In this document: positions 37,838 through 64,000 of the stretch, piece after piece
How positions within the stretch are numbered: position 1 is the first letter of the stretch
Layout of the letters: each line of letters begins with the position of its first letter
From: Tachypleus tridentatus
Taxonomy: Eukaryota
Direction: 5' to 3'
DNA length: 64,000 bases
NCBI RefSeq assembly: GCF_004210375.1
Contig: NC_134837.1
Span: 252,617,964 to 252,681,963 of the forward strand
Translations under genes and position numbers: made by a program
Notes under the pieces: model-generated
The model's input: the letters and a program-made list of their open reading frames with translations, nothing else
What the model was told of the DNA's origin: nothing
Databases searched by the model: none

Positions 37838-40144
37838 AGTTCATACCACTTCACCAGCTATAAAATATTACATGTATAATAAGTAAACATGAAGAGATTT
37901 ATTACCATAAGTGAAAAGAAAATGGTAAAAGTTTGAATAATATATAATTTGGCTACTGTTTATAACCTTTACAAGATATTCTTGGCATGCTTATAATATA
38001 AAATTACAAAATACATAGGGTTAATTCAGCCAAGAAATTACTAAACTGCTAAGTTTGTCAATCTTCAGATATTAAGGTTATCATAAACATTATCATAGAG
38101 AAAAAAACATTAACAAATAGAACTATTTAGAATTCTAGCATAAAAATGCACCTTGGTCATTTTAACAAGCTTATCCACTCTCTAGTTACAACTAGTACCT
38201 ACAGAATTATCTCAACTTTGGTTTATATGATTTCCATCCAGTATATCACAGCTTTCAACACTCACTTAATCTTAAAGTTACTGTTTTTCATACCATTAAC
38301 TAGTAGCAGGATCCACTTACTGCATCACATGAAGTAATTTTATATCTTAGATTTTTACAATATACAATGTAAAAACCAAACTCACACTCACTTTTTATGT
38401 AAAATACCCAAGTGTCCCCAGTAGTAACTGGTGGGATTACTTTCAGTATTGATGGTATCTGTACTTATTTATTTATGTGTATTTAATTCTTTAAGGCAAC
38501 TCTTATATTATTAAGAGCCCCTGTAATCAATAAAATCATGAGCTCACAAGCAATTTGGTCCATGAACAGTTCAGAAAAATCCCAACATCATATCAACTCA
38601 TCCTCATTCAAAGCAAAACATATAAACAAAGATAAGTTATCTTTCATTCCCCACATACTTGTTCACCAAAAGTATAGAAGAGTTTTGAGCTGCACATGAG
38701 ACTTGCCATCACACAAACCATTCTATAGGTTTTAAAACTTTACCAAAAAGTAGACTTATGAACATGTCTACATACAGATTTCCAAAGTTTAACACAATTA
38801 CTTCTGTTATTCATGTTCATGTTTGTACACTAATTTTCTTTCTTGTCATTTAACAATTCTAACAAGTTGTAGAAACTCCTGGAAATGTTTTAAAACAAAA
38901 TCTAGCCTATTCTTTTTCACACAAATTTCACAAAATAACACCTCACAGAAACTTGTTTCAACACTGCATCTGTGCTGATAGCCTACCTGTAAAAAGGAGG
39001 AACACACTACAACAAGTTTGTTTTTATTTTTTCACACAACATCAGTACTACTTTCATTCAAGCTAGTTCTTTCAAATTACAATATTCAATGACATGAGCA
39101 AAAGGATAATAGAAGGCCAATCAACTAATCTGTTGAGTATTGTAAATTAACCACAAATCCCCTAACTGTACAAATAAAATATATAAATAATAAAACAGCT
39201 GACAACATCGTCTACACCAACAAGCACCACTTCTTATTACATGCTATAAAAGTATGCTATCCATGGATTCCTGTGCATGCTTAGTATATTTTTTCATTTT
39301 ACACACCCCTTCAAATACAAATTTGAAAGTTAATCTCATATAAATAGAACATCTGAAATCTTTCTTTCATTAAACATAGCCTGGAATTCAAAACTGTAAA
39401 TACTCAACTCTGTATACTTACCATCGTAAGCCTTAAAATAAATTCATCTCAGATATCCTATTTCTAGATTTTCTTTTGTACTTACTCAACAAAGATTTTT
39501 TTCCCTCCTAAGTTTAGTAGATATTGCAAATATCATGTATAATTTTATTCTAAATTATAATAATATTAATTACATAGCAGCAAGGGCAGTTGAGACGAGC
39601 CCGTTCACACTCAAATCTCAATTCCAATGCTATACTTAAGCTGTTAACTATCAACGACACAGTATTAAACTAATGTATCTGTGGTCAGAAGGTCTATCAC
39701 AGTATCAGGCTTAACTAAACAATTATTGATTGTATTGTTTTATGGCCTTTCCTCGTTTTGTACATACTATTATTATTTGTATAATTGTATGGTCTTACGT
39801 TTTGAAAACCAGCTTTGTACTATTGAATAAAAGGTTGTACTAATTAATTGAAGTAATACATAAACAACTATAAGAATGACTAACAAATAGATATTTCATA
39901 TATTATGTTTACATTATTAGGTAGTCCTACAGTTTACCAAAAAACTACTTCGGTTACCTGTTACACTTTTGTTGCACTTCCGAGTGCAATCGTTTATTAC
40001 CGGTTATTTCGTCTACACTGAGATAGCTAGATATCGAAAGTACCTCAATCTCAGAGCAAAAAGATAATTGGAATGTAATCGTGGGAGTTAAGAAATATAT
40101 TTATTTTCAATGCACTCACTATTTAAAAATCATTCTTACGAGGC

Positions 40145-40431
40145 TTTTTGTTTTTTTGGAATTTCGCACAAAGCTACTCGAGGGCTATCTGTGCTAGCCG
40201 TCCCTAATTTAGCAGTGTAAGACTAGAGGGAAGGCAGCTAGTCATCACCACCCACCGCCAACTCTTGGGCTACCCTTTATACCAACGAAAAGTGGGATTG
40301 ACCGTAACATTATAACGCCCCCACGGCTTGGAGGGCGAGCATGTTTTGGCGCGACTCGGGCGCGAACCCGCGACTCTCAGATTGCGAGTAGAGCGCATTA
40401 ACCACCTGGCCATGCCGGGCCTTAAATGTTA
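40145..40431 (-). mobile_element. SINE copy, full length and GC-rich, so probably young. Its tRNA-like head GGCCCGGCATGGCCAGGTGGTTAATGCGCTCTACTCGCAATCTGAGAGTCGCGGGTTCGCGCCCG is on the minus strand.
   Basis: Near-identical to the 45927-46194 copy. It has CpG-rich tRNA-like A-box and B-box sequences and a (CAAAA)n tail at 40145-40160. Confidence 0.8.
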
Positions 40432-41366
40432 ACAGGTCCCACCGAGGCATAAAATATTTATATATTTTAAGATATAATATCTACCATTTTATGTTATGTT
40501 AAAATACTTTATTACACAACTGAAAATGACTGTACCTGTGATTTGTTGGTGATAAATGTCAACAATAAACGAACAGCACACAATACACTTCTTTTAAAAT
40601 AAAATATTCAAAACAAGCCAAACCTATGTACAAGCATTCTTTTCACTATTAGTTATCAAAATAATGCTCAAAACCTTAAACAATTCTTTTTCTTATCAAA
40701 AGAGTACACAGATTAGTTCAATTATTTTATAAATAATTCAGTTGGCAAGATGAATTATTTGTCTTCACTCTGCTACATTTCTTACTGTACGATCTATGAT
40801 AGATTCACTTAACATAATGGGTTACCGCAGTTGAATCCAGAAATACAAATAATTATATTATTTTCATCAGAGTTCAAACATTCTGGTTTAATTAGTTTAA
40901 AATGCCCTTTGTTAAGACAAATTGTTCTCCTTTTCTCTATTAAACTGTGAATCACATTAAATATCGTCCACTACGTCTAAACTAATACTCATGCAGTCTA
41001 ACTGCACTTTTATAATCCTAAATTTTTCTGAATGGCGCTGATTCGGTCGCCTATATATATTTTTTTCCACATGATGCTAAGAACTTTCTACAAACTACAA
41101 GACATTGTGATGCAACAATACTCACTTAAGGAAACCATAAGAATTCAAAAGGTTTGAGTAATGTGACGTCCATTTAAAACAATTCAGTTACATACATAAC
41201 GCAAAAGTCTTATCGAGTTACGTAACCAAAGTTGTCATTACTGTCCCTTCAGAATAGTTAACTTTTAATACTCTTATTATGAAAACTACATAATCGTTGA
41301 ATATTAAATCATTAAATGAAGTAAATAATAACACTTAGACTAAAGAGTTGAAGTTTTTCCAATAAT

Positions 41367-41572
41367 TTGTTTGTTTGTTTCTGAATTTTGCGCAAAGCTA
41401 CACGAGGGCGATGTGCACTAGCTGTCCCTAATTTAGCAGTGTAAGGCTAGAGGGAAAGTAGCTAGTCATCGCCATCCACCGCCAACTCTTGGGCTACTCT
41501 TTTACCAACGAATAGTGGGATTGACTGTCACATTGTAACGCCCCACGGCTGAAAGGGCGAGCATGTTTGGAG
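41367..41572 (-). mobile_element. SINE copy lacking the tRNA-like head (5'-truncated)
   Basis: It matches the body and tail of the family, then ends abruptly after GCATGTTTGGAGTC. Confidence 0.7.
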
Positions 41573-41882
41573 TCATAAATAATATATAGGTCTATATATA
41601 TATAATACATAATTTAAAGCTATCGGACCCAGCAAAGTATGCCTACAGTCCAGTCATCAACATATAAAATATAGAGTCACTCAGGAGAGTGCAAAATATA
41701 TGTGTTTTGTCTATAATCTGTATTCAAATATCATGGACGGTATATGTTCAGATGCTCTGGATTTCAAGAATTAATTTCACAAATAAACAGTGGGTAGCAC
41801 CGTGGCAGGCTGGCAGCACCATGGTACTGTGAATGTGACGTTGACGTTGACAAACAGAAGTTGAGATAAACAGTCATTCACC

Positions 41883-44421
41883 ATGTCAAGCCTGAAAAAG
41901 CAAAAGACACTGCATTGGTTCTTTAAACTCATTCGTGATGCTGAACCTTATCAATTTGCTGCAGCCAATCAGGTTGAATCAGAATTGTTAACTGAATTGT
42001 CAATGTCATCACCATGGCCTTCTACCACTGCTGCCACTACCACCTCAGGTCCAGTCTGGGACATTGGTAATTACATTTATGATGATTTCAGCATTGGTAA
42101 ACAGGTAAGTCGACTCCTCATTATATTAATTATGTACTAAAAATCATGCAAACAGTCTGATGAGTTTTAGACTGAATATTCATTGCTGCTAGTGATTGTA
42201 AACCTACAGCCACAGGATGTTAGGCCTGCTCTGTGAAGCACAGCTCTAAGCCTTTCTCTTTGAAGTTATTGTACTCTCATAACAAACTTTCCCATGTATG
42301 AAATAACTTAATTAGAACTATGTCTTTCTGTCTCTTTTAGATAAACGCTGAAACCAAAAAATGCCTCCTTGAAAATGCCTTGAAGCCAGGGAGTGATTAT
42401 GTTTTACCCCAGAGTGGTCCAAGAAAGCTGCGTTTTCAGCATCGTTGGCTTTCACAGTGGAGATGGCTACTCTACAGTCAACATGCAAAGGGTGCTTTCT
42501 GCAAGTACTGCTGTCTTTTTGCTCCTGATGGTGCTGGTGTTAGAAGCCAGAAATTGGGACAACTAGTGAAATTTCCATACACAAACTGGAAGAAAAAGCT
42601 AACAATTTTCTACAGGTCGTAAATACAAGTTCATCTGTGCATTTGCAGCTTGATGCAACTTACAAGTAAGAAATTAAAAAGAACCGGCAATATTTAATGC
42701 TTATTATTGATACTGTATTGCTGTGTGGGAGACAGGGTTTAGCTTTGAGGGAAAATGATGATCCTGGTCCAATGTTTGTTGGTGAAACTGATGAGGAGCC
42801 TATCAATAATGATGGGAATTTTTGGGCAATTTTCCGCCTTAAGAGTACAAAGAGGAATGCCACGTATCTGAGTCCTCAAATTCAAAATGAAATCATCAAT
42901 GCCTGTAATACTCATGTACTTGATGCTTTGGTCAACAGGATTAATGCTGCAAAGTGTTTCTCAATATTAGCTGATGAAACAACAGATATTTCAGGCATTG
43001 AACAGTTTTCGCTGTGTTAAATATTTGCATGCTAATGACAACTCTACTGTAATGAGAGAATATTTTTTGCAATTTATACCTGTTTATGATGTGACAGGCA
43101 GAAACTTGGCTGATGTTATTATAACCAATCTGACAAAATATGGTATTGACATCTTACCTGGGAGGACAAGGGTACGACAGTGCTGTCTCTATGAGTGGGA
43201 AATTCAATGGTGTCCAGAGACACATAACTGATAAATTTCCACTTGCACCCTCTGTACACTGCAGTGCTTATTCCCTAAACTTGACAATTTCTGATGCTTG
43301 TAAAGAAGTTCCTGTGCGAAATTGCATGGGAGTAATTTCTAGCATTGAAAACTTTCTCAATACACCCAAACAAAAGCACATTTTGGCTCTTTCGGTGGAG
43401 AATAAAGCACCTGAATCGAAAAAAAAGTTTGAAAAGTCTCTGCCCCACCCGGTGGGTTGAGAGGCATGACTCAGTCATTGTCTTTCTAGAATTAATCCAT
43501 GCAGTTGCAGATGCCCTTTAGACCATATCAGTTTGGCAAGACAGAGATTTTGTCACGCAAGCCAATCAATTGTTGTGTTCTATAACACAGCCAGAATTCA
43601 TCATTACTCTACTTACCAATGCTAAATTGTGTTCCTTTAGTTTACCTCTGTGAAACTTACTGCAGCAACAGAACATTAATTTAGGTGCTGCGATGCATCA
43701 CGCAGAAATAGTGGAAGATTTAATCCGTTCACTCAGGAATAATACTGTGAATGAATTTAACAACATTTTCTGTGAGGCTCAAACTCTGTGTAGTGAGCTT
43801 CAAATTGACATCATAATGCCAAGGCAGGCTAAAAGACAGATGTATCGTGCTAACCCACAAACCACTAGCCCTGAGGAGTACTTTCGTATTGTTGTATTTG
43901 TACCATTTGTTGATCACTTTCTTTCACAAATATGTGACCGTCTGTCCAGTCACAAAACTCTCATTACAAACCTCATGTGTCTACTACCATCAGGATCTAC
44001 CACAGAATGGTCAGAACCTACAACACAACAATGTGACCAAATTAAAGAGTTGGTCAATATATGCAAGGCTGACATTGACAGCACTTCACTAGCTGCGGTA
44101 GGTGAACTTAGGGTTTGATACAAATCACTTGCGAACAACAGACCAAAAAATGTCATAGATGCATATGCAATGTGCATTGCAGAAATGTTCCCAGTCATTT
44201 CTAGACTCTTGAAAGTATTTGCCAGGCTGCCTGTGTCAACGAGATCAGTGGAGCGTTCGTTTTCAACTCTCAGAAGACTGAAAACATATTTGAGAAATAC
44301 CACCACTGAAGATCGATTGAATGGCCTGGTCTCATTATACATTCACCGTGATATTAAAGTTGAACCAAACTGTGTTGTAGATGTCCTGGCAAGAACAAAC
44401 AGGCGTTTGAGCCTTTCATAG
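41883..44421 (+). mobile_element. hAT-superfamily transposase relic of the ZMYM1/ZBED (Charlie)-like type. It has a zf-TTF region (WLSQWRWLLYSQHAKGAFCKYCCLF), a DUF4371 region (LSPQIQNEIINACNTHVLDALVNRINAAKCFSILADETTDISGIEQ), an RNase-H-like core (GQGYDSAVSMSGKFNGVQ...SVHCSAYSLNL) and a hAT dimerisation domain (VSTRSVERSFSTLRRLKTYLRNTTTEDRLNGLVSLYIHRD). It is broken into at least 6 frames.
   Basis: The ORFs at 41883-42108, 42342-42622, 42697-43020, 42974-43231, 43140-43460, 43693-44118 and 44170-44421 lie in different frames but together give a colinear hAT transposase. One canonical intron (GTAAGT...TTTTAG, 42109-42341) sits near the 5' end. The frameshifts indicate a pseudogene. Confidence 0.8.
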
Positions 44422-45864
44422 ATATTCGATTGTATTTCTCTGGTTCTGACAAAACTTGCTGTATTAAAAGAGTGTTCAATCAGAAATTTGCATTTGACCA
44501 TTTGTTGTGTGTGAAATTATCTGCTATGCAATCACGGATCTTTATGAAACTTCACAGGTGGCAACTAAACTTGTCTAAAAAGTTTGGGTCCATGGGGGTT
44601 AACCCTCAACCCCCCTGGCTACACCCCTGGTGATCTTCGTACTGAAAGACGGGAAATTTGTGTACTCGCATCGAGTTTCAAAGATTCATTCTTCGATGAT
44701 TAATTAGTAAAACAGCAAAATGTACCTTTAACTTCTTTAGTTATGACTGTATGTTAAGTATTATAATTTATCTCAGACGGGTCTCTGATTTATTATGTTA
44801 CAGTCATTATAATTGGAAGTTGGACTGAGAAGTTAATTGAAAGCTGATATGCGTCATATTTTGGATATTTGCCAATAAGAATAATACACACATTTTACTT
44901 TCTTAACACAAATATATTTTAATATACAAACAAGAATATAATTTATAATAACAATTATTACAAAAAATTATTTACATTCAAATGTTTTACCAACTTGAAA
45001 AGAATACTGAGTCTTCTATCTGGTCTGGAACTGAATACTTTATCTACTGTTCACGAGGCGCAAATTAGTTTTATGTCCAAAGTTAACGTCCGAAGTTAAT
45101 TCTCTGAAGTTCGAAATAATGTTCGAAATCTATAAATGTTCCTGGTCAAATATCTCTAGTTTTTCGATTAATAAGCGTTAATCACAATTACAGCTTCCAA
45201 AGCTTATAGTATGTTGACTGTAGCTGACAAACAATATCATATTTGCCTCCCAACGTTTTGCGATAGCTTCCTTTTATACTCATTAGGCGAGATTCTCGAA
45301 AATTAATTGGCAACAATATTCGAAAATAAGCTAGTGCTTTCGTATATATATATTGTTGATTCTCATACTCGAGAATCTTCTACAAATCTATAGAACATGC
45401 GGGACTTGTGCGACACACATTTAATAGTATAAGTTACACACATTTCTAAATAGTTATATATTAAAGTGAAACAAACATAGATATTAAAATAATATTAAAT
45501 CATTTACTGATAGTTTACTGAATCTTGTTAATAATTAAATATACGATTGAATTCGATAATGAATAATTATAAACTATCCTAATAAATTAATAGATGCAGA
45601 ACTTTGCTTAAGTTTATACAAGTTTACTTTTAGATAAGTAGTGTATTTTTCAGACTCTCCTTAAATATAAATGTATAAGTAATTTATACTCTATACATTT
45701 TATACAATTAACCATAATTAGTTGTATTTCAGTTTGTTAGCAAACGATTTTAAAAAATTCAATTTCAATTGTGTTTTACTTTAAGTTTGTTTATGCACAT
45801 ATCATTTTTATAATAAATTATACTAAATTTTATTTTAACAATAAATAAAAGAAACTGTTAGTGA

Positions 45865-46215
45865 TACTACTTTTGGTTATTAGTATAATGACAACACTAC
45901 TAATATTTGTATTATAGTTTGAAGACTTGTTTGGAAATTTCGCACAAAGCTACTCGAGGGCTATCTGTGCTAGCCGTCCCTAATTTAGCAGTGTAAGACT
46001 AGAGGGAAGGCAGCTAGTCATCACCACCCACCGCCAACTCTTGGGCTACTCTTTACCAACAAATAGTGGGATTGACCGTCACATTATACACCCCCCACGG
46101 CTGGGAGGGCGAGCATGTTTAGCGCGACGCGGGCGCGAACCCGCGACCCTCGGATTACGAGTCGCACGCCTTACGCGCTAGGCCATGCCGGGCCAGTTTG
46201 AAGACAAGGAACAGG
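45865..46215 (+). repeat. Solitary 78-bp satellite monomer (GATACTACTTTTGGTTATTAGTATAATGACAACACTACTAATATTTGTATTATAGTTTGAAGAC...AAGGAACA) interrupted by the SINE
   Basis: Identical to the consensus of the array at 51.1-64 kb. It lies about 5 kb proximal to the array. Confidence 0.85.
45927..46194 (-). mobile_element. SINE copy inserted into a solitary 78-bp satellite monomer. It has a perfect 11-bp TSD AGTTTGAAGAC.
   Basis: AGTTTGAAGAC occurs at 45916-45926 and again at 46195-46205. The flanks (45865-45926 and 46195-46215) are the same monomer that forms the 51.1-64 kb array. Confidence 0.85.
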
Positions 46216-46679
46216 GATGGAGGGTATACACCCCCCATTTATTTTAGGTGGGGGTGTGGTGCATACAATCATCTCCCCCCTACAGTTTGGTCTGTTGAAT
46301 TGTTTTATTGCATCACAGTCCTACAAATTGTGTGTTTGTTCTTGTGATTCTCGTGTTCTTACCAATCGAATTACATAATTAGGCCTAGATGTAGGCTTTT
46401 TCAGCAGACGAAATGTACATCTTTAATATAGGCGTGCTTCTAAGCTTTTCGATGTAAGCGATAGTTCGTAAGTATCAGTCAGTAGGCCTAAGTATACATG
46501 CAAGGCTTGCAAGTACTATCACAGAATCTACATACGTCTTGTACGTAGTGTAAGATTAAGTAAAATTTTCATCACAACTGATTGAACATAGCATGAAATA
46601 CGAAAATATTACTCCCAAGCGTAAACTCCTGTGATCTAGATCTGGCAGGCCATTTGTAGCTTGTAGCTGCATCAATCTT

Positions 46680-46930
46680 AAGTGTATATTGCGCGGTTTT
46701 CCTACGCCATTTGTTCTTATGCATGTCTAGCCGGTTTTATTGTCGAACGCCTTACTCTCCTTAGCTGCCGAATTCGCTGACCATAGTGTACGTTTAGCGT
46801 ACAGTTAACGACAGGTCGGGTCGCTCGGATCCAGACGCGCCCTACATCACCCCCGTCCGCTCCCTTTGGTCTTAGCCTGGATTTTATGACAGGGCTCATT
46901 AGACCTGTGTTTGTGGCCCTCATAAAATTT
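46680..46930. other. Isolated CpG-rich, GC-rich island within otherwise AT-rich DNA
   Basis: GTCGGGTCGCTCGGATCCAGACGCGCCCTACATCACCCCCGTCCGCTCCC... It lies 400-700 bp upstream of the LINE RT fragment. It may be a retroelement 5' UTR or promoter remnant. No coding signal was found. Confidence 0.35.
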
Positions 46931-47279
46931 CAGATTATCACCGCCCTCTAATAAAGTGCTGGTGCTTTATGGTAGAATAATAAAATATATTCTTTTATCA
47001 TAGATAGTAAAAATATTATATTTTCTTGTATAATTAGAACATGAAAGGAGCGATTTCAACGGTCTGAAGCCTCTACTCGAATTGTATTATTGGTTTTTGT
47101 TTAGGTGTTTTTATTTAATAGACGTGCTTATAGACATTATATCACAACGTGTTTGCCTTTTGATGAGCTTTAACACAAATATAATATATTTGTGATTGTT
47201 TAAGTATTTTTCGAGAAACTCGCAATTACTTGTGTTGTAATTAGCACACATTATTGTCCCAGCGATGCTCAGGCGGTCA

Positions 47280-49450
47280 GGCGGCTCGGTAGTCACTGTG
47301 AGGTTCGCACGTTCGACTTAAATACATTGTACAGTTCAGTCCTACTTCCATCAATCCTAATTCTATTGATGAGTATCTATTAATCATCACCAACACGATA
47401 ATTAATGCAATGAACACAATAATTTCTAAGCGCCGTATCAACAATGACCCATCTTCATGGAAACTTACTAGAACAGTGCATTTACTTATCACTAAAAGAC
47501 GAAGACTCCGACGCCAATTCATGATCTCCCGCGACCCCGCGATTAAACATCAAATCAACCGAGTAACTAATCTTATCAGACGTCGAATTAATGAACAAAA
47601 AGATCAAAATTAGTCCGAGTTATGTGCGTCAATAGACAATTCATATACAGATTCGGCTACATTCTGGAGAAAGTTCAAGAACATATGTAATGACAACTCA
47701 ACCAACAGCATTCCTAATTTAAAACTTGATAGCAGCTCAGCAACTAGCGACCTGAAAAAGCCAACTTATTAGACGATTACTACAAACAGATTTTCACTAC
47801 TCCGAACTCGCCACACTTTGATAACAATCATTTTTGCACAATTCAAAATTTCGTCAAAGATAACAATCAAATAACACTATTTAGTAGGAATTTCCCATGC
47901 TATTTATCACACAATAGCAATGTCCGCCTTAACGACCTTCAAAAACTCACCAGATCAATAACCCGGATTGAAATCAAACTAGTAACCAAAACACTTAAAA
48001 ATAGTGCCCCAGGTGAGGATAGAATACGTAATATCATTCTTAACAAAGCCTCTACCTCGTTTATAGTCATCTAGTCAGCCTTATTTAACCTTTCTTTTTA
48101 TTCAGGGTACTACCCGCCTCAATGCAAGTCCGCCATAAATAAAGTTATACCTAAAACAAATCCTGCATCTAATAATCCAAAAGACTATAGGCCCATCAGC
48201 TTAATTAATAGCATTGGTAAATTATTGGAAAAAATCTTAGCCACTCGCATTACACGGTATTTGGAAAGCATTATGTTACTTTCTGAAATACAAAATGCCT
48301 CCCGAAGAAAAAGACGGACTGCCGATCATTTAGTTCGATTAACCGAATCCGTTATTCAAGGTTTTAATAGAAATCACACCACTGTGGGCTTATTTTTGGA
48401 TGTCAAACAAGTCTTTGATTCTGTCTGGCACCAGGGTCTAAGGTTTAACTTCCTTCAGTTTAACCTCCCGTCCACCCTAACAAGATGGATAGCTAGCTTT
48501 CTAGATAACAGGACAGCTAAAGTAAGAATAAACAACACTACATCCTACACTGTTCAGGCGTTCCCCAAGGTTCAGTACTAAGCCTTCTGTTGTATGTATT
48601 ATATGTTAATGACATCCCCTTTCCTAAGTTCAAGTACACCTATGCGTCGCAATATGCTGACGACATAGCAGTATGGAGCATGCCACGTGAACCCCTTTTG
48701 GCCGCCGCTAAAGTCCAATCCACACTAGATAGCATTACCACCATGTGTAACACCTGGCGGGTCGCGCTTAATGCCACTAAAACGCAGGCTATAATATTCA
48801 AACGCAAAATCTCGAGGAAAAACAAATCTATCTCTGAACTTAATATAATGGACAATGAACTTAAATTTTCTTCAACTATAAAATTCCATGGCATTATGTT
48901 CAACAAGTAGCTAACTTGGACCGATCACTTTAAAGCCATTCTCTCAAAAGTATATAAACGAATCTCCTACCTCAGAAGAATCAGTAGTATCGTCAGAGGA
49001 TGTAGAACAAAAACGATTCTCATAATATACAGAATTTACATTCGACCGATCATTGAATACGGCAACATGATCACTGCAAAAGCACCACTCTTACATCTTA
49101 AAAAATTACAACAGGCCCAGAATCTTGCCATTCGACTAGCACATCGAATCCCCAGGTACACACCGTGATAACGCAAGCACCTTCCCAACACTCAAGAAAA
49201 GACTTACCTATCTAGCAGCTAAATACTATAAAAAAGCAAACAACCGTACACCATCAACAAGACAATTTCCACAACTAGCAGCCACCCCACGATCTTGGCA
49301 GCGATACCTCTCACCACATAATTACATACAAGCCCTGAATGTAAACTCAAATGACTAACCATATATGCCTTTTTACTTCCAGCATTGGGTGCCCCACCAG
49401 TGAAAGTGTGTTTTCTCGGGGTACTCCCGTTTCTCCCCACATCAAAATTC
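47280..49450 (+). mobile_element. Degenerate non-LTR retrotransposon (Jockey/CR1-like clade) reverse-transcriptase fragment
   Basis: RT motifs appear in several frames: LKNSAPGEDRIRN, YPPQCKSAINKVIPK...KDYRPISLINSIGKLLEKI, RRKRRTADHL, LFLDVKQVFDSVWH, YADDIAVW, and a C-terminal region TKTILIIYRIYIRPIIEYG. Stops and frameshifts are present, and no endonuclease or ORF1 lies upstream, so it is 5'-truncated. Confidence 0.8.
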
Positions 49451-50058
49451 TTTTCTCTTAGGATTTATAGATCCCAGCCCTGAAAATAGGCCAGTTAGAA
49501 CGCATCTTAATCATCACCAAATTCTAGTACCAAAATTTCAGGTTAATTTAGAACATGAGTTCTAACCAAGCTGACGTACTGTTTGCATCTCTCTGCTCGT
49601 CTCAACTCATCTTTCTTCGACTACATTTACGTTTAAGAAACCTTTAAGTGGATGAATGAGTTGCTGAATCTCTCGCCGTAGTCTTCGTTCTCTCTCTCCG
49701 ACTCGGGGGCCTCCTCCGCAGCTTTTTCCGAAGCTCCTTAAGCAGTCACACAAGTATGTTAATTTCAGGGTCATCTGTGATCACCATTCCAGATTAACAA
49801 ATATCTTGCCACTCAAGTTCACTTCACCAATCACGTACTCCGTTTAATTTTATCTAGTCGCGTGTGGGGTGAAGAGAAACAGTAGTTTTTGACCACCCCT
49901 GGTTATTTTTCGTTCCCTTTGATGAACGGAATTATAAATTAACCTAAATACCTATCCAGTATCCACTCCTACTTCCATTCTGTTCTATCTTCGTTCGTTG
50001 TACGTTAGAGTTTTTCAATAAAGACTGTATTTTAGTCTGTGGAATCATCTGGGAAACA

Positions 50059-51150
50059 GATTCCAATTATGACAAGCAAGCGTCTGAAACTTTCTGATAT
50101 TAGACAATTCTATAAGCCAGTTACTAGTACTACAAGTGACAATGCAGATGCAGATAATCCAACAACCTCAAGCAAAGGAATATAAACTTGCCATACAGAG
50201 GAAATACCATGTTCATCAGAGGACGAGTGTGAAAATGCTTGTGCAACATCATGAACCACCAGATAGTTGTGAAATATGTTTATGCAGCAATGAAAAATCT
50301 GACACTCCACAGATACAGTGTGGAAAGCCATATCATCCAGATGCACAACTAATACCACGACAGAAAGCAAAATCTCAAAATATCAACTTCCAGGGCAAGT
50401 GGTTTCATGAGTTCCCATGGTTGCACTTCGACAATCAGACTCAAAAAGTCATATGCTTTCATTGCGCCAGGGCAGAAACTAGAGGCCATTTTACAGGAAA
50501 ATTGGAGAGGCCAGTGGAATATACCTTCATATCCACCGGTTTTTTGCAACTGGAAAAAGGCAAAACAGAAATTCAACGAACACAAATCCTCCTCTCAGCA
50601 CAGATTCGCTATATCTCCAGAAGGTTCACTTGATGTAACTCCAGTGACTGTCCAGCTACATGATGGAAAAAAGAAGCAGCAGGAAGAGTGAAAAGAAGTC
50701 CAGCCAAAATATTCAGAAGTTTACGTTTCTTACTGCGTTAAGGCTTAGCATTACGTGGACATACTGATACGGAGGGGAACTTCCTGCAGTTAATGAAGCT
50801 CCTGGAAGAGGAAGATCCTGAGTTGACAGCCAACTTGTCAAAGAAAACCACAGTCACATCATCCCAGGCTCAGAATGAAATAATGGAGATGTTCAGCCAA
50901 CAAATACTGAGGAACATAGCACAGGAAGTGCATCAGAGTAAAATATTTGCATTAATGGTTGATGGCACTCAAGATGTTACAGGTGCCAAACAGGAAGCAA
51001 TATGTGTACGATACGCAGATGAGAACCTTGACGTCAATGAGACATTTCTTGGTTTGTACAGTGTTTCCAATACAACTGGTGAAACAATATCCTCGACTAT
51101 ATGTGATGTACTGACAAAACTCAATTTACCACTGGCAGGATTAAGAGCAC
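50059..51150 (+). mobile_element. Second hAT-like transposase relic, from a different family. It has a zf-TTF region (FQGKWFHEFPWLHFDNQTQKVICFHCARA ... FISTGFCNWKKAKQKFNEH) and a DUF4371 region (SSQAQNEIMEMFSQQILRNIAQEVHQSKIFALMVDGTQDVTGAKQEAICVRYADENLDVNETFLGLYSVSN). It is frameshifted, has an in-frame TAA (RFLLR*GLALRGHTDTEGNFLQLMKL) and is 3'-truncated by the satellite array.
   Basis: The domain order matches ZMYM1-like hATs. Several frameshifts fall between 50160 and 50800. The coding similarity stops at ...LAGLRAQ, exactly where the 78-bp satellite begins. Confidence 0.75.
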
Positions 51151-51151
51151 A

Positions 51152-54100
51152 AACTAATATTTGTATTATCGTTTGAAGACAACGAACATCCCTCTCAGCT
51201 ACTTTTGATTATTAGTATAATGACAACACTACCAATATTTGTATTATAGTTTGAAGACAAGAAATATCCCTTCCAGCTAATTTTTGTTATTAGTATAATG
51301 AAAACACTACTAATATTCGCATTATAGTTTGAACAGAAGGAACATCCCCTTCAGCTACTTTTGGTTATTAGTATAATGACAACACTACTAATATTTGTAT
51401 TATAGTTTGAACAGAAGAAACATCCCTTTCAGCTACATTTGATTATTAGTATAATGACAACACTACTAACATTTGTATTATACTTTGAAGACAAGGAACA
51501 TCCCTTACAGCTACTTTTGGTTATTAGTATAATGACAACACTACTAATATTTGTATTATAGTTTGAACAGAAAGAACATCCCCTTCAGCTACTTTTGGTT
51601 ATTAGTATAATGACAACACTACTAATATTTGTATTATAGTTTGAACAGAAGGAACATCCCTTTCAGCAATTGTTGGTTATTAGTATAATGACAACACTAC
51701 CAATATTTGTATTATAGTTTGAAGACAAGAAATATCCCTTCCAGCTAATTTTTGTTATTAGTATAATGAAAACACTACTAATATTCGCATTATAGTTTGA
51801 AGACAAGGATCATCCCTTTCAACTACTTTTGGTTATTAGTATAATGACAACACTACTAATATTTGTATTATAGTTTGAACAGAAAGAACATCCCCTTCAG
51901 CTACTTTTGGTTATTAGTATAATGACAACACTACTAATATTTGTATTATAGTTTGAACAGAAGGAACATCCCTTTCAGCTATTGTTGATTATTAGTATAA
52001 TGACAACACTACTAATATTTGTATTATAGTTTGAACAGAAGGAACATCCCTTTCAGCTATTGTTGGTTATTAGTATAATGACAACACTACCAATATTTGT
52101 ATTATAGTTTGAAGACAAGAAATATCCCTTCCAGCTAATTTTTGTTATTAGTATAATGAAAACACTACTAATATTCGCATTATAGTTTGAAGACAAGGAT
52201 CATCCCTTTCAACTACTTCTGGTTATTAGTATAATGACAACACTACTAATATTTGTATTATAGTTTGAACAGAAGGAACATCCCTTTCAGCTACATTTGA
52301 TTATTAGTATAATGACAACACTACTAACATTTGTATTATACTTTGAAGACAAGGAACATCCCTTACAGCTACTTTTGGTTATTAGTATAATGACAACACT
52401 ACTAATATTTGTATTATAGTTTGAACAGAAAGAACATCCCCTTCAGCTACTTTTGGTTATTAGTATAATGACAACACTACTAATATTTGTATTATAGTTT
52501 GAACAGAAGGAACATCCCTTTCAGCTATTGTTGGTTATTAGTATAATGACAACACTACTAATATTTGTATTATAGTTTGAACAGAAAGAACATCCCTTTC
52601 AGCTATTGTTGGTTATTAGTATAATGACAACACTACTAATATTTGTATTATAGTTTTAACAGAAGGAGCATCCCTGTCAGCTACTTTTGGTTATTAGTAT
52701 AATGACAACACTACTAACATTTGTATTATAGTTTGAAGACAAGGAACATCCCTTTCAGCTACTTTTGGTTAATAGTATAATGACAACACTACCAATATTT
52801 GTATAATAGTTTGAAGACAAGGAACATCCCTTACAACTACTTTTTGTTATTAGTATAATGACAACACTACTAATATTTGTATTATAGTTTGAACAGAAGG
52901 AACTTTCCTTCCAGCTACTTTTGGTTATTAGTATAATGACAACACTACTAATATTTGTATTATAGTTTGAACAGAAGGAACATCCCTTTCAGCTACTTTT
53001 GGTTATTAGTATAATGACAACACTACCAATATTTGTATTATAGTTTGAACAGAAGGAGCATCCCTTTCAGCTATTGTTGGTTATTAGTATAATGACAACA
53101 CTACTAATATTTGTATTATAGTTTGAAGACAAGGAACATCCCTTCCAGCTACTTTTGGTTATTAGTATAATGACAACACTACCAATATTTGTATTATAGT
53201 TTGAAGACAAGAAATATCCCTTCCAGCTAATTTTTGTTATTAGTATAATGAAAACACTACTAATATTCGCATTATAGTTTGAAGACAAGGAACATCCCTT
53301 CCAGCTACTTTTGGTTATTAGTATAATGACAACACTACTAACATTTGTATTATAGTTTGAACAAAAAGAACACCCCTTTCAGCTACTTTTGGTTATTAGT
53401 ATAATGACAACACTACTAATATTTGTATTATAGTTTGAACAGAAGGAACATCCCTTTCAGCTACTTTTGGTTATTAGTATAATGACAACACTACTAATAT
53501 TCGCATTATAGTTTGAAGACAAGGAACATCCCTTCCAGCTACTTTTGGTTATTAATATAATGACAACACTACTAATATTTGTATTATAGTTTGAACAGAA
53601 GGAACATCTCTTTTAGCTACTTTTGGTTAATAGTATAATGACAAAACTACCAATATTTGTATTATAATTTGAAGACAAGAAATATCCCTTCCAGCTAATT
53701 TTTGTTATCAGTAAAATGAAAACACTACTAATATTCGCATTATAGTTTGAAGACAAGGAACATCCCTTCCAGCTACTTTTGGTTATTAATATAATGACAA
53801 CACTACTAATATTTGTATTATAGTTTTAACAGAAGGAGAATCCCTTTCAGCTATTGTTGGTTATTAGTATAATGACAACACTACTAATATTTGTATTATA
53901 ATTTTAACAGAAGGAGCATCCCTTTCAGCTATTGTTGGTTATTAGTATAATGACAACACTACTAATATTTGTATTATAGTTTGAACAGAAGTAGCATCCC
54001 TTTCAGCTATTGTTGGTTATTAGTATAATGACAACACTACCAATATTTGTATTATTGTTTGAACAGAAGGAGCATCCCTTTCAGCTATTGTTGGTTATTA

Positions 54101-57100
54101 GTATAATGACAACACTACTAATATTTGTATTATAGTTTTAACAGAAGGAGCATCCCTTTCAGTTACATTTGATTATTAGTATAATGACAACACTACTAAC
54201 ATTTGTATTATAGTTTGAAAACAAGGAACATCCCTTACAGCTACTTTTGGTTATTAGTATAATGACAACACTACTAATATTTGTATTATAGTTTGAACAG
54301 AAGGAACATCCCATTCAGTTACATTTGATTATTAGTATAATGAAAACACTACTAACATTTGTATTACACTTTGAAGACAAGGAACATCCCTTACAGCTAC
54401 TTTTGGTTATTAGTATAATGACAACACTACTAATATTTGTATTATAGTTTGAACAGAAGGAACATCCCTTTCAGCTATTGTTGGTTATTAGTATAATGCC
54501 AACACTACTAATATTTGTATTATAGTTTTAACAGAAGGAACATCCCCTTCAGCTTCTTTTGGTTATTAGTATAATGACAACGCTACTAATATTTGTATTA
54601 TAGTTTGAACAGAAGGAACATCCCTTTCAGCTATTGTTGGTTATTAGTATAATGACAACACTACTAACATTAGTATTATAGTTTGAAGACAAGGATCATC
54701 CCTTTCAACTACTTCTGGTTAATAGTATAATGACAACACTACTAATATTTGTATTATAGTTTGAACAGAAGGAACATCCCTTTCAGCTACATTTGATTAT
54801 TAGTATAATGAAAACACTACTAACATTTGTATTATACTTTGAAGACAAGGAACATCCCTTACAGCTACTTTTGGTTATTAGTATAATGACAACACTACTA
54901 ATATTTGTATTATAGTTTGAACAGAAGGAACATCTCTTTCAGCTACTTTTGGTTATTAGTATAATGACAACACTACTAATATTTGTATTATAGTTTGAAC
55001 AGAAGGAACATCCCCTTCAGCTTCTTTTGGTTATTAGTATAATGACAACGCTACTAATATTTGTATTATAGTTTGAACAGAAGGAACATCCCTTTCAGCT
55101 ATTGTTGGTTATTAGTATAATGACAACACTACTAATATTTGTATTATAGTTTTAACAGAAGGAGCATCCCTTTCAGCTACTTTTGGTTATTAGTATAATG
55201 ACAACACTACTAACATTTGTATTATACTTTGAAGACAAGGAACATCCCTTCTAGCTACTTTTGGTTATTAATATATTGACAACACAACTAATATTTGTAT
55301 TATAGTTTGAACAGAAGGAACATCCCTTTCAGCTACTTTTGGTTATTAGTATAATGACAACACTACCAATATTTGTATTATAGTTTGAAGACAAGGAACA
55401 TCCCTTACAGCTACTTTTGGTTATTAGTATAATGACAACACTACTAATATTTGTATTATAGTTTGAACAGAAGGAACTTTCCTTCCAGCAACTTTTGGTT
55501 ATTAGTATAATGACAACACTACTAATATTTGTATTATAGTTTGAACAGAAGGAACATCCCTTTCAGCAACTTTTGGTTATTAGTATAATGACAACACTAC
55601 TAATATTTGTATTATAGTTTGAACAGAAGGAACATCTCTTTCTGCTATTGTTGGTTATTAGTATAATGACAACACTACTAATATTTGAATTATAGTTTTA
55701 ACAGAAGGAGCATCCCTTTCAGCTATTGTTGGTTATTAGTATAATGACAACACTACTAATATTTGTATTATAGTTTTAACAGAAGGAGCATCCCTTTCAG
55801 CTATTGTTGGTTATTAGTATAATGACAACACTACTAATATTTGTATTATAGTTTGAACAGAAGGAGCATCCCTTTCAGCTATTGTTGGTTATTAGTATAA
55901 TGACAACACTACCAATATTTGTATTATAGTTTGAACAGAAGGAACATCCCTTTCAGCTATTGTTGGTTATTAGTATAATGACAACACTACCAATATTTGT
56001 ATTATAGTTTGAACAGAAGGAGCATCCCTTTCAGCTATTGTTGGTTATTAGTATAATGACAACACTACTAATATTTGTATTATAGTTTGAAGACAAGGAA
56101 CATCCCTTCCAGCTACTTTTGGTTATTAGTCTAATGACAACACTACCAATATTTGTATTATAGTTTGAACAGAAGGAGCATCCCTTTCAGCTATTGTTGG
56201 TTATTAGTATAATGACAACACTACCAATATTTGTATTATAGTTTGAAGACAAAGAACATCCCTTCCAGCTACTTTTGGTTATTAGTATAATAACAACACT
56301 ACCAATATTTGTATTATAGTTTGAAGACAAGGAACATCCCTTACAGCTACTTTTGGTTATTAGCATAATGACAACACTACCAATATTTGTATTATAGTTT
56401 GAAGTTAAGAAATATCCCTACCAGCTAATTTTTGTTATTAGTATAATGAAAACACTACTAATATTCGCATTATAGTTTGAAGACAAGGATCATGCCTTTC
56501 AACTACTTCTGGTTATTAGTATAATGACAACACTACCAATATTTGTATTATAGTTTGAACAGAAGGAATATCCCTTTCAGCTACATTTAGTTCTTAGTAT
56601 AATGACAACACTACTAACATTTGTATTATAGTTTGAAGACAAGGAACATCCCTTCCAGCTACTTTTGGTTATTAATATAATGACAACACTACTAATATTT
56701 GTATTATAGTTTGAACAGAAGGAACATCCCTTTCAGCTACTTTTGGTTATTAGTATAATGACAAAACTACCAATATTTGTATTATAATTTGAAGACCAGA
56801 AATATCCCTTCCAGCTAATTTTTGTTATCAGTATAATGAAAACACTACTAATATTCGCATTATAGTTTGAAGACAAGGAACATCCCTTCCAGCTACTTTT
56901 GGTTATTAATATAATGACAACACTACTAATATTTGTATTATAGTTTGAACAGAAAGAACATCCCCTTCAGCTACTTTTGGTTATTAGTATAATGACAACA
57001 CTACTAATATTTGTATTATAGTTTGAACAGAAGGAACATCCCCTTCAGCTACTTTTGGTTATTAGTATAATGACAACACTACTAATATTTGTATTATAGT

Positions 57101-60100
57101 TTGAACAGAAGGAACATCCCTTTCAGCTATTGTTGGTTATTAGTATAATGACAACACTACTAATATTTGTATTATAGTTTGAACAGAAGGAACATCCCTT
57201 TCAGCTACTTTTGGTTATTAGTATAATGACAACACTACTAATATTTGTATTATAGTTTGAAGACAAGGAACATCCCTTCTAGCTACTTTTGGTTATTAAT
57301 ATAATGACAACACTACTAATATTTGTATTATAGTTTGAACAGAAGGAACATCCCTTTCAGCTACTTTTGGTTATTAGTATAATGACAACACTACCAATAT
57401 TTGTATTATAGTTTGAAGACAAGGAACATTTCTTACAGCTACTTTTGGTTATTAGTATAATGACAACACTACTAATATTTGTATTATAGTTTGAACAGAA
57501 GGAACATCCCTTCCAGCTACTTTTGGTTATTAGTATAATGACAACACTACTAATATTTGTATTATAGTTTGAACAGAAGGAACATCCCTTTCAGCTACTT
57601 TTGGTTATTAGTATAATGACAACACTACTAAATTTGTATTATAGTTTGAACAGAAGGAACATCCCTTTCAGCTATTGTTGGTTATTAGTATAATGACAAC
57701 ACTACTAATATTTGTATTATAGTTTGAACAGAAGGAGCATCCCTTTCAGCTATTGTTGGTTATTAGTATAATGACAACACTACTAATATTTGTATTATAG
57801 TTTGAACAGAAGGAGCATCCCTTTCAGCTATTGTTGGTTATTAGTATAATGACAACACTACTAAATTTGTATTATAGTTTGAACAGAAGGAACATCCCTT
57901 TCAGCTATTGTTGGTTATTAGTATAATGACAACACTACTAATATTTGTATTATAGTTTGAACAGAAGGAACATCCCTTTCAGCTATTGTTGGTTATTAGT
58001 ATAATGACAACACTACTAATATTTGTATTATAGTTTGAACAGAAGGAACATCCCTTTCAGCTATTGTTGGTTATTAGTATAATGACAACACTACTAATAT
58101 TTGTATTATAGTTTGAAGACAAGGAACATCCCTTCCAGCTACTTTTGGTTATTAGTATAATGACAACACTACTAATATTTGTATTATAGTTTGAACAGAA
58201 GGAACATCCCTTTCAGCTATTGTTGGTTATTAGTATAATGACAACACTACTAATATTTGTATTATAGTTTGAAGACAAGGAACATCCCTTCCAGCTACTT
58301 TTGGTTATTAGTATAATGACAACACTACTAATATTTGTATTATAGTTTGAAGACAAGGAACATCCCTTACAGCTACTTTTGGTTATTAGTATAATGACAA
58401 CACTACTAATATTTGTATTATAGTTTGAAGTTAAGAAACATCCCTTCCAGCTAATTTTTGTTATTAGTATAATGAAACACTACTAATATTTGTATTATAG
58501 TTTGAAGACAAGGAACATCCCTTTCAGCTACTTTTGGTTATTAGTATAATGACAACACTACTAATATTTGTATTATAGTTTGAACAGAAGGAACATCCCT
58601 TTCAGCTACATTTGGTTATTAGTATAATGACAACACTACTAATATTTGTATTATAGTTTGAAGACAAGGAACATCCCTTCCAGCTACTTTTGGTTATTAG
58701 TATAATGACAACACTACTAATATTTGTATTATAGTTTGAACAGAAGGAACATCCCTTTCAGCTACTTTTGGTTATTAGTATAATGACAACACTACCAATA
58801 TTTGTATTATAGTTTGAAGACAAGAAACATCCCTTCCAGCTAATTTTGGTTATTAGTATAATGAAAACACTACTAATATTTGTATTATAGTTTGAAGACA
58901 AGGAACATCCCTTCCAGCTACTTTTGGTTATTAGTATAATGACAACACTACTAATATTTGTATTATAGTTTGAACAGAAAGAACATCCCTTCAGCTACTT
59001 TTGGTTATTAGTATAATGACAACACTACTAATATTTGTATTATAGTTTGAACAGAAGGAACATCCCTTTCAGCTATTGTTGGTTATTAGTATAATGACAA
59101 CACTACTAATATTTGTATTATAGTTTGAACAGAAGGAACATCCCTTTCAGCTATTGTTGGTTATTAGTATAATGACAACACTACTAATATTTGTATTATA
59201 GTTTGAAGACAAGGAACATCCCTTCCAGCTACTTTTTGGTTATTAGTATAATGACAACACTACTAATATTTGTATTATAGTTTGAAGACAAGGAACATCC
59301 CTTTCAGCTACTTTTGGTTATTAGTATAATGACAACACTACTAATATTTGTATTATAGTTTGAACAGAAGGAACATCCCTTTCAGCTACATTTGGTTATT
59401 AGTATAATGACAACACTACTAATATTTGTATTATAGTTTGAAGACAAGGAACATCCCTTACAGCTACTTTTGGTTATTAGTATAATGACAACACTACTAA
59501 TATTTGTATTATAGTTTGAACAGAAGGAACATCCCTTCAGCTACTTTTGGTTATTAGTATAATGACAACACTACTAATATTTGTATTATAGTTTGAACAG
59601 AAGGAACATCCCTTTCAGCTATTGTTGGTTATTAGTATAATGACAACACTACTAATATTTGTATTATAGTTTGAACAGAAGGAACATCCCTTTCAGCTAT
59701 TGTTGGTTATTAGTATAATGACAACACTACTAATATTTGTATTATAGTTTTAACAGAAGGAGCATCCCTTTCAGCTACTTTTGGTTATTAGTATAATGAC
59801 AACACTACTAACATTTGTATTATAGTTTGAAGACAAGGAACATCCCTTTCAGCTACTTTTGGTTATTAGTATAATGACAACACTACTAATATTTGTATTA
59901 TAGTTTGAAGACAAGGAACATCCCTTACAGCTACTTTTTGTTATTAGTATAATGACAACACTACTAATATTTGTATTATAGTTTGAACAGAAGGAACATC
60001 CCTTCCAGCTACTTTTGGTTATTAGTATAATGACAACACTACTAATATTTGTATTATAGTTTGAACAGAAGGAACATCCCTTTCAGCTACTTTTGGTTAT

Positions 60101-63100
60101 TAGTATAATGACAACACTACTAATATTTGTATTATAGTTTGAACAGAAGGAACATCCCTTTCAGCTATTGTTGGTTATTAGTATAATGACAACACTACTA
60201 ATATTTGTATTATAGTTTGAAGACAAGGAACATCCCTTCCAGCTACTTTTGGTTATTAGTATAATGACAACACTACCAATATTTGTATTATAGTTTGAAG
60301 ACAAGGAACATCCCTTCCAGCTACTTTTGGTTATTAGTATAATGACAACACTACTAATATTTGTATTATAGTTTGAAGACAAGGAACATCCCTTCCAGCT
60401 ACTTTTGGTTATTAGTATAATGACAACACTACTAATATTTGTATTATAGTTTGAACAGAAGGAACATCCCTTTCAGCTACTTTTGGTTATTAGTATAATG
60501 ACAACACTACTAATATTTGTATTATAGTTTGAACAGAAGGAACATCCCTTTCAGCTACTTTTGGTTATTAGTATAATGACAACACTACTAATATTTGTAT
60601 TATAGTTTGAAGACAAGGAACATCCCTTCCAGCTACTTTTGGTTATTAATATAATGACAACACTACTAATATTTGTATTATAGTTTGAACAGAAGGAACA
60701 TCCCTTTAGCTACTTTTGGTTATTAGTATAATGACAAAACTACTAATATTTGTATTATAGTTTGAAGACAAGAAACATCCCTTCCAGCTAATTTTTTTGT
60801 TATTAGTATAATGAAAACACTACTAATATTCGCATTATAGTTTGAAGACAAGGAACATCCCTTCCAGCTACTTTTGGTTATTAATATAATGACAACACTA
60901 CTAATATTTGTATTATAGTTTTAACAGAAGGAACATCCCTTTCAGCTATTGTTGGTTATTAGTATAATGACAACACTACTAATATTTGTATTATAGTTTT
61001 AACAGAAGGAGCATCCCTTTCAGCTATTGTTGGTTATTAGTATAATGACAACACTACTAATATTTGTATTATAGTTTGAACAGAAGGAGCATCCCTTTCA
61101 GCTATTGTTGGTTATTAGTATAATGACAACACTACTAATATTTGTATTATAGTTTGAACAGAAGGAACATCCCTTTCAGCTATTGTTGGTTATTAGTATA
61201 ATGACAACACTACTAATATTTGTATTATAGTTTTAACAGAAGGAGCATCCCTTTCAGCTACATTTGGTTATTAGTATAATGACAACACTACTAATATTTG
61301 TATTATAGTTTGAAAACAAGGAACATCCCTTACAGCTACTTTTGGTTATTAGTATAATGACAACACTACTAATATTTGTATTATAGTTTGAACAGAAGGA
61401 ACATCCCTTTCAGCTACATTTGATTATTAGTATAATGACAACACTACTAACATTTGTATTATAGTTTGAAGACAAGGAACATCCCTTACAGCTACTTTTG
61501 GTTATTAGTATAATGACAACACTACTAATATTTGTATTATAGTTTGAACAGAAGGAACATCCCTTTCAGCTATTGTTGGTTATTAGTATAATGACAACAC
61601 TACTAATATTTGTATTATAGTTTGAACAGAAGGAACATCCCTTCAGCTTCTTTTGGTTATTAGTATAATGACAACACTACTAATATTTGTATTATAGTTT
61701 GAACAGAAGGAACATCCCTTTCAGCTATTGTTGGTTATTAGTATAATGACAACACTACTAATATTTGTATTATAGTTTGAAGACAAGGATCATCCCTTTC
61801 AACTACTTCTGGTTATTAGTATAATGACAACACTACTAATATTTGTATTATAGTTTGAACAGAAGGAACATCCCTTTCAGCTACATTTGATTATTAGTAT
61901 AATGACAACACTACTAACATTTGTATTATACTTTGAAGACAAGGAACATCCCTTACAGCTACTTTTGGTTATTAGTATAATGACAACACTACTAATATTT
62001 GTATTATAGTTTGAACAGAAGGAACATCCCTTTCAGCTACTTTTGGTTATTAGTATAATGACAACACTACTAATATTTGTATTATAGTTTGAACAGAAGG
62101 AACATCCCTTCAGCTTCTTTTGGTTATTAGTATAATGACAACACTACTAATATTTGTATTATAGTTTGAACAGAAGGAACATCCCTTTCAGCTATTTTTG
62201 GTTATTAGTATAATGACAACACTACTAATATTTGTATTATAGTTTGAACAGAAGGAACATCCCTTTCAGCTACTTTTGGTTATTAGTATAATGACAACGC
62301 TACTAATATTTGTATTATAGTTTGAAGACAAGGAACATCCCTTCAGCTACTTTTGGTTATTAATATAATGACAACACTACTAATATTTGTATTATAGTTT
62401 GAACAGAAGGAACATCCCTTTCAGCTACTTTTGGTTATTAGTATAATGACAACACTACCAATATTTGTATTATAGTTTGAAGACAAGGAACATCCCTTAC
62501 AGCTACTTTTGGTTATTAGTATAATGACAACACTACTAATATTTGTATTATAGTTTGAACAGAAGGAACATCCCTTCCAGCTACTTTTGGTTATTAGTAT
62601 AATGACAACACTACTAATATTTGTATTATAGTTTGAACAGAAGGAACATCCCTTTCAGCTACTTTTGGTTATTAGTATAATGACAACACTACTAATATTT
62701 GTATTATAGTTTGAACAGAAGGAACATCCCTTTCAGCTATTGTTGGTTATTAGTATAATGACAACACTACTAATATTTGTATTATAGTTTGAACAGAAGG
62801 AACATCCCTTTCAGCTATTGTTGGTTATTAGTATAATGACAACACTACTAATATTTGTATTATAGTTTGAACAGAAGGAACATCCCTTTCAGCTATTTTT
62901 GGTTATTAGTATAATGACAACACTACTAATATTTGTATTATAGTTTGAACAGAAGGAACATCCCTTTCAGCTATTTTGGTTATTAGTATAATGACAACAC
63001 TACTAATATTTGTATTATAGTTTGAACAGAAGGAACATCCCTTTCAGCTATTGTTGGTTATTAGTATAATGACAACACTACTAATATTTGTATTATAGTT

Positions 63101-64000
63101 TGAACAGAAGGAACATCCCTTTCAGCTATTGTTGGTTATTAGTATAATGACAACACTACTAATATTTGTATTATAGTTTGAAGACAAGGAACATCCCTTC
63201 CAGCTACTTTTGGTTATTAGTATAATGACAACACTACTAATATTTGTATTATAGTTTGAACAGAAGGAACATCCCTTTCAGCTATTTTGGTTATTAGTAT
63301 AATGACAACACTACTAATATTTGTATTATAGTTTGAAGACAAGGAACATCCCTTCCAGCTACTTTTGGTTATTAGTATAATGACAACACTACTAATATTT
63401 GTATTATAGTTTGAAGACAAGGAACATCCCTTACAGCTACTTTTGGTTATTAGTATAATGACAACACTACCAATATTTGTATTATAGTTTGAACAGTTAA
63501 GAAATATCCCTACCAGCTATATTTTTTATTAGTATAATGACAACACTACTAATATTTGTATTATAGTTTGAAGACAAGGAACATCCCTTTCAGCTACTTT
63601 TGGTTATTAGTATAATGACAACACTACTAATATTTGTATTATAGTTTGAACAGAAGGAACATCCCTTTCAGCTACATTTGGTTATTAGTATAATGACAAC
63701 ACTACTAACATTTGTATTATAGTTTGAAGACAAGGAACATCCCTTCCAGCTACTTTTGGTTATTAATATAATGACAACACTACTAATATTTGTATTATAG
63801 TTTGAACAGAAGGAACATCCCTTTCAGCTACTTTTGGTTATTAGTATAATGACAACACTACTAATATTTGTATTATAGTTTGAAGACAAGAAATATCCCT
63901 TCCAGCTAATTTTTTGTTATTAGTATAATGAAAACACTACTAATATTCGCATTATAGTTTGAAGACAAGGAACATCCCTTCCAGCTACTTTTGGTTATTA
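51152..64000. repeat. Satellite DNA array. The 78-bp monomer is GTTTGAACAGAAGGAACATCCCTTTCAGCTACTTTTGGTTATTAGTATAATGACAACACTACTAATATTTGTATTATA. It spans at least 12.8 kb (about 165 copies) and continues past the window end.
   Basis: Strict 78-bp periodicity is visible throughout. Recurring monomer subtypes are GAACAGAAGG vs GAAGACAAGG, CTACTTTTGG vs CTATTGTTGG vs CTACATTTGA, and a distinct variant ...GAAATATCCCTTCCAGCTAATTTTTGTTATTAGTATAATGAAAACACTACTAATATTCGC recurring every 5-14 units. Confidence 0.95.

Follow-up and report, generated by a model that had tools for sequence, protein, structure and literature searches.

Gene and repeat content of the window

The window, by which we mean the whole stretch of 64,000 nucleotides of Tachypleus tridentatus DNA that was analysed, carries part of a conserved gene on its left side, a transposon-rich block and, on its right side, an array of 78-bp tandem repeats (Table 1). 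The gene is TEP1-like (telomerase protein component 1); its exons extend from ~19.5 kb down to 2.1 kb on the minus strand, and the gene reaches past the left end of the window. We identified TROVE (~19.4 and 17.3 kb), DUF4062 (8.0 and 7.0 kb) and NACHT P-loop (2.2 kb) domains, and the best database matches of the exons, led by Branchiostoma and also including spiders and Saccoglossus, are 44-55% identical. The nearest confirmed exon lies ~26 kb from the array and, since this exon belongs to an ordinary conserved gene of the single-copy type, the window is a gene-to-repeat transition zone.

Between the TEP1-like exons, and hence intronic, there is a 38-bp tandem repeat (9023-9740; 19 copies with 87% matches) that is unrelated to the 78-bp satellite. 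Moreover, the CpG observed/expected ratio is 0.19 in the gene region (positions 1-40000) vs 0.6-0.77 in the transposon-rich block (40000-51152), a contrast in base composition which suggests germline methylation of the gene body together with relatively young transposon insertions.

Table 1 Features of the 78-bp array and its left edge, with the monomer types that make up the array
Feature	Position	Strand	Description	Basis
Outermost satellite remnant	45867..45926	+	Monomer positions 47-78 followed by 1-28; B type (GAAGAC)	
SINE, read as tRNA-derived (268 bp)	45927..46194	-	Inserted within a satellite monomer	
Rest of the interrupted monomer	46195..46213	+	Duplicated positions 18-28, then 29-36 (AAGGAACA)	blast-short match
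Composite transposon block (4.9 kb)	46212..51152	+	GC ~40%	Pfam matches, GC profile, frame translation
Main array, proximal half	51153..57548	+	Monomers 0-81; every monomer exactly 78 bp; heterogeneous	
Main array, distal half	57549..64000	+	Monomers 82-163 and a 62-bp stub; more homogeneous; types A and B dominate	
Type A (83 monomers)			GAACAGAAGG with CTATTGTTGG or CTACTTTTGG	Clustering
Type B (37 monomers)			GAAGACAAGG with TTCCAG	Clustering
Type C, divergent (8 monomers)			AATTTTTGTT…GAAAACACT	Clustering
Types E and F (9 monomers)			ATTCGC at the start	Clustering

Size, register and composition of the array

Tandem Repeats Finder reported a single array at 51153..64000 with a period of 78 bp, 164.8 copies, 93% matches, 0% indels and a score of 21673. 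Plain chopping into 78-bp units lost the register after monomer 82. Segmentation guided by alignment gave 164 full monomers and a 62-bp stub that is cut by the end of the window; 149 of the monomers are 78 bp long, 11 are 77 bp, three are 79 bp and one is 80 bp. The 78-bp periodicity and the ~165 copies claimed in the first-pass annotation of this DNA are consequently borne out by both approaches. A 40-nt pattern spanning the monomer junction matched 117 times within the array and not once in 100 shuffles, and the orientation of the array is uniform with every match on the plus strand. While the array had been described as running off the contig end, it is the end of the window (position 64000) that it reaches; its right end is situated outside the window and the visible 12.8 kb is a lower bound on its size.

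At 29.5% GC the array is similar to the bulk of the window, and the 40-51 kb region to its left is richer (36-41%). The CpG observed/expected ratio is 0.05 within the array, i.e. CpG is nearly absent. Weak 34- and 44-bp periods were also listed by Tandem Repeats Finder. We considered whether the 78-mer is a dimer of a shorter ancestral unit and rejected this, the best internal alignment scoring 14 vs 12.7±2.1 in shuffled sequences.

Monomer types and their order

Among the 164 monomers 91 are distinct, and the mean pairwise identity is 92.6%. Both clustering and motif counts in the array (GAACAGAAGG, 79 occurrences; GAAGACAAGG, 50; CTATTGTTGG, 41; CTACTTTTGG, 81; CTACATTTGA, 5) identify the monomer subfamilies that had been named in the first-pass annotation as real. 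Six of the eight type C monomers have an E or F monomer directly after them and, for this reason, the divergent type mentioned in that annotation corresponds to the junction of a C+E/F dimer. This divergent junction, AAAACACTAC.AATATTCGC, is present nine times with spacings of 6, 5, 14, 6, 35, 5, 51 and 40 units; the divergent type hence exists and recurs irregularly, as had been stated, but over a range of 5 to 51 units rather than 5 to 14.

Types A and B are also distinguished at monomer positions 26-28, where CAG is replaced by GAC; the two changes are linked, and intermediates are almost absent (column counts 100/62 and 99/61). This linkage would go back either to one complex mutation or to haplotypes that were strongly propagated.

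Higher-order structure and homogenisation

The mean difference between monomers plotted against lag is flat, with 4.8-6.2 differences and weak dips only at lags 25-26 and 40. The longest near-identical consecutive run on any diagonal comprises four monomers, to be compared with a maximum of five when the order was shuffled. Based on the lag profile, the k-mers of the type string and the diagonal runs relative to shuffles, we exclude a long higher-order repeat (HOR), be it strict or partial; multi-monomer units that are far more identical to one another than neighbouring monomers are, which characterise HOR satellites, were not found in the array. However, diagonal runs of at least three monomers number 18 vs 4.7 in shuffles, a ~4-fold enrichment which indicates small block (segmental) duplications, and small patches with a periodicity of 5-6 monomers surround the C+E/F dimer. 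Given these patches and the enriched block duplications, it is fair to speak of "partial higher-order structure" short of a strict HOR, which is the wording that had been used.

The local homogenisation that had also been proposed is barely detectable at the scale of neighbours (5.55 differences between adjacent monomers, i.e. at lag 1, vs 5.76 overall), and the real signal is a large-scale gradient from edge to interior. Specifically, the proximal 82 monomers show 7.03 differences per pair vs 4.43 for the distal 82, a difference that was reached in none of 2000 permutations. The proximal half harbours nearly all divergent C (AATTTTTGTT..GAAAACACT) and E/F (ATTCGC) monomers. The 15 monomers that are 77, 79 or 80 bp long are confined to the distal half, and the first 82 monomers include none of them. 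A gradient of this kind, between a decaying edge and a homogenised interior, is what satellite arrays usually show.

The distal location of the monomers deviating from 78 bp, many of which represent homopolymer-length changes, could hint at lower consensus quality towards an assembly end, and with that at an assembly artefact, i.e. a tandem locus that was over-expanded or collapsed. We consider this very improbable: exact repeats within the array do not exceed 311 bp, the 91 distinct monomers appear in irregular order, and several indel variants recur identically at separate places (monomers 134 and 140; monomers 151 and 155). The identical recurrence favours inherited variants over random errors, and the 311-bp limit on exact repeats together with the irregular variant order argues against a trivially looped product of the assembly.

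True left boundary and the SINE insertion

The start of the array had been placed at position 51152. We found that the same satellite resumes upstream, at 45867-45926 and 46195-46213, which moves the start to 45867. The 40-nt junction pattern also matches at 45878, 5.3 kb upstream of the main array, and the segment 45867-45923 shows 100% identity to the consensus dimer (blastn, E 5e-28). The boundary with unique AT-rich DNA on the left is at 45866/45867. The satellite remnant is 68 bp in length and is split by the SINE, which is flanked by a perfect 11-bp target-site duplication (TSD), AGTTTGAAGAC, at 45916-45926 and 46195-46205, as read directly from the sequence. The presence of the SINE and its 11-bp TSD inside a monomer implies that the satellite is older than the insertion and that it formerly extended across the 4.9-kb transposon block.

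The SINE belongs to a family of ~270 bp with a (CAAA)n-like tail and at least five copies in the window (72-90% identity); the further copies are located at 40152-40421 (90%), 41375-41568, 13790-14046 and 21807-21951. It is read as tRNA-derived because its head gives a partial tRNA match of 20.8 bits, which is below the Rfam gathering score. ARAGORN predicted no intact tRNA. Its consensus closely resembles what we take to be an abundant SINE of horseshoe-crab genomes, and the SINE pattern gave no match in the JGI metagenomes or IMG/VR.

The transposon block between the remnant and the main array

At position 46212 the composite block opens with the hAT-like terminus CAGGGATGGAGGG, a TIR-like motif that is unique in the window and that starts part-way into the SINE-interrupted monomer, at monomer position 36. 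It is followed by a Jockey-like LINE reverse transcriptase at ~47302-49165 (Pfam RVT_1, E 7.5e-17 and 1.9e-11), for which the closest homologues are 36-41% identical, those with names being jockey/X-element-like and from arthropods and other invertebrates. Finally, the N-terminal part of a hAT/ZMYM1-like transposase is present at ~50088-51152 (DUF4371, E 7.8e-14); our searches returned no homologues of this hAT fragment. The transposase reading frame runs into the first monomer of the main array and the transposase is cut off at 51152, with the satellite resuming at monomer position 1. The monomer phase is consequently not restored across the hAT truncation, since the satellite breaks off at monomer position 36 on its left side and starts again at position 1 on its right, and this suggests that the history of the edge includes at least one deletion or rearrangement.

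A second hAT/ZMYM1-like copy, degenerate and frameshifted, was detected at 41800-44632 and ends in CCCCTGGCTACACCCCTG at 44629. Here the C-terminal dimerisation domain of hAT elements (Dimer_Tnp_hAT) scored above the Pfam threshold, while the DUF4371 match was weak and below it. At the nucleotide level this copy (41.8-44.63 kb) is not similar to the hAT fragment situated at 50.1-51.15 kb. No pairing of terminal inverted repeats was found for either hAT copy.

Since hAT fragments are present at 41.8-44.63 kb and at 46.2-51.15 kb, i.e. on either side of the outer satellite remnant, the question arises of whether the array is borne by, or derived from, a transposon, for example a hAT or Helitron element whose internal repeats expanded. 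The monomer, however, resembles nothing else in the window, be it the SINE, the LINE or either of the hAT copies, and the TSD of the SINE and the hAT-like terminus both fall within one monomer and look like insertions into a pre-existing array. A transposon origin accordingly appears far-fetched.

Coding potential, structure and motif searches

The array is non-coding. The consensus has stop codons in six of six frames, which contradicts the earlier description of one frame as free of stops and rules out a coding repeat with a 26-aa unit. Nor did we find the spurious repetitive open reading frames (ORFs) expected from such a frame, as no more than three ORFs in the array reach 60 aa and none exceeds 73 aa.

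No Rfam family was present at threshold anywhere in the 64-kb window. When the monomer dimer was folded as single-stranded DNA there was no hairpin/cruciform potential or dyad symmetry (z +0.59 vs shuffles), and a CENP-B-like box (TTCG....A..CGGG) had no match on either strand. Runs of the telomere repeats (TTAGG)n or (TTAGGG)n are likewise absent from the 64-kb window, which covers the array as far as position 64000.

The telomere search bears on whether the array could be a subtelomeric satellite next to the end of a chromosome. In animals, subtelomeric regions often carry tandem arrays with units of 50-400 bp, and the array does run off the window; no feature of the window favours a chromosome end, however, and in view of the missing (TTAGG)n or (TTAGGG)n runs within the 64 kb a subtelomeric position is improbable.

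Discussion

We report that the right part of the window comprises the proximal edge of a satellite-type array in a metazoan genome, which is genuine, AT-rich and non-coding, has a 78-bp unit, is presumably maintained by recombination and has an edge that is older and transposon-invaded, a reading to which we assign a probability of roughly 85%. Two properties by which satellites are recognised, head-to-tail tandem copies over many kb and the lack of coding capacity, are both found here. The array itself is ordinary and nothing about it is functionally unusual.

As to its origin, the array would have grown and been maintained by unequal crossing-over, gene conversion and small segmental duplications. 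Recombination may be less efficient at the edge, such that old diverged variants are kept and transposons accumulate there, and the interior would be more uniform. The order of events at the left boundary can be reconstructed: the satellite came first, the SINE inserted into an outer monomer, leaving its TSD intact, and a hAT element carrying the LINE fragment appears to have inserted into outer monomers as well. A later deletion, ending in the array, may have removed the 3' half of the hAT element and some of the monomers. Any role of the array would presumably be structural or epigenetic, i.e. in heterochromatin.

Where such an array belongs in the genome is a question with several candidate answers. 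It may be an interstitial tandem array restricted to one locus, resembling a VNTR or a minisatellite of very large size, and not part of a genome-wide satellite family. In keeping with this, the unit is <100 bp, the one locus seen lies among genes and transposons, there are no dispersed copies in the remaining 45 kb of the window, and the satellite pattern had no match in the JGI metagenomes or IMG/VR, collections in which this genome would not be expected. On the other hand, the copy number of at least 165, the divergence of 7% and the subfamily structure indicate an old and large array that is more satellite-like than minisatellite-like, and we regard the locus-specific alternative as possible but doubtful.

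Another candidate is a (peri)centromeric satellite, which would be part of the heterochromatin around the centromere and possibly bound by centromeric chromatin. A transposon pile-up combined with a homogeneity gradient is the classic border pattern of pericentromeric arrays, and the AT-rich array of at least 12.8 kb described here, with transposons piled up at its edge and homogeneity increasing towards its interior, has this appearance. We also observe, without attaching more to it, that the dimer, at 156 bp, roughly matches the spacing of nucleosomes. An edge littered with transposons would be expected at a heterochromatin border, although it is not confined to such borders. A CENP-B-box-like motif or dyad symmetry is present in many, although not all, centromeric satellites, and the array has neither of these (z +0.59 for the latter) and no HOR; in addition, a conserved gene is situated within ~26 kb. 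For Limulus, a chromosome-level genome paper proposed Gypsy-dominated centromeres and the candidate regions showed no tandem-array pattern (PMC11836539), which also argues against a centromeric assignment. Taken together, we consider a (peri)centromeric position unlikely, albeit less so than a subtelomeric one.

We found no relevant literature on a 78-bp satellite or on these sequences, exact-protein look-ups gave no match, and two other horseshoe-crab genome papers make no mention of satellites. As a horseshoe-crab repeat, the 78-bp satellite is probably undescribed, and it is probably not the centromere core. That it constitutes an uncharacterised major satellite of the horseshoe-crab lineage, which could mark pericentromeric heterochromatin, strikes us as a long shot; if true, the published picture of Gypsy-based centromeres free of tandem arrays (PMC11836539) would be qualified. 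Interest in the array would rise only if genome-wide data made it the main (peri)centromeric repeat of a lineage with supposedly satellite-free centromeres. As it stands, the locus has little significance beyond genome annotation, for which the monomer consensus and its subfamilies can be used in a repeat library, both for masking the array and for avoiding spurious ORF calls. The graded and transposon-interrupted edge is, moreover, a clean textbook case of satellite border decay versus a homogenised interior.

Compared with known systems, the array is related in organisation to the Tribolium TCAST, Drosophila 1.688 and tick ISR tandem repeats, which are classical animal satellites without HOR. 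Judged by general description rather than by sequence, these share with it an AT-rich, non-coding array in single head-to-tail orientation, in which monomer variants are shuffled by unequal exchange and the edges are more divergent and transposon-invaded; their units, however, are ~100-400 bp vs 78 bp here. Primate alpha satellite likewise consists of tandem AT-rich monomers of recognisable types, and has divergent, monomeric and transposon-interrupted edge layers around a homogeneous core, but its unit is 171 bp and the present array differs from it in having no HOR or CENP-B box. Finally, large minisatellites and macrosatellite VNTR loci resemble the array in having a unit of <100 bp at a single locus beside genes, whereas they are GC-rich and the array is AT-rich, comprises no fewer than 165 copies and combines 7% divergence with a structure of subfamilies.
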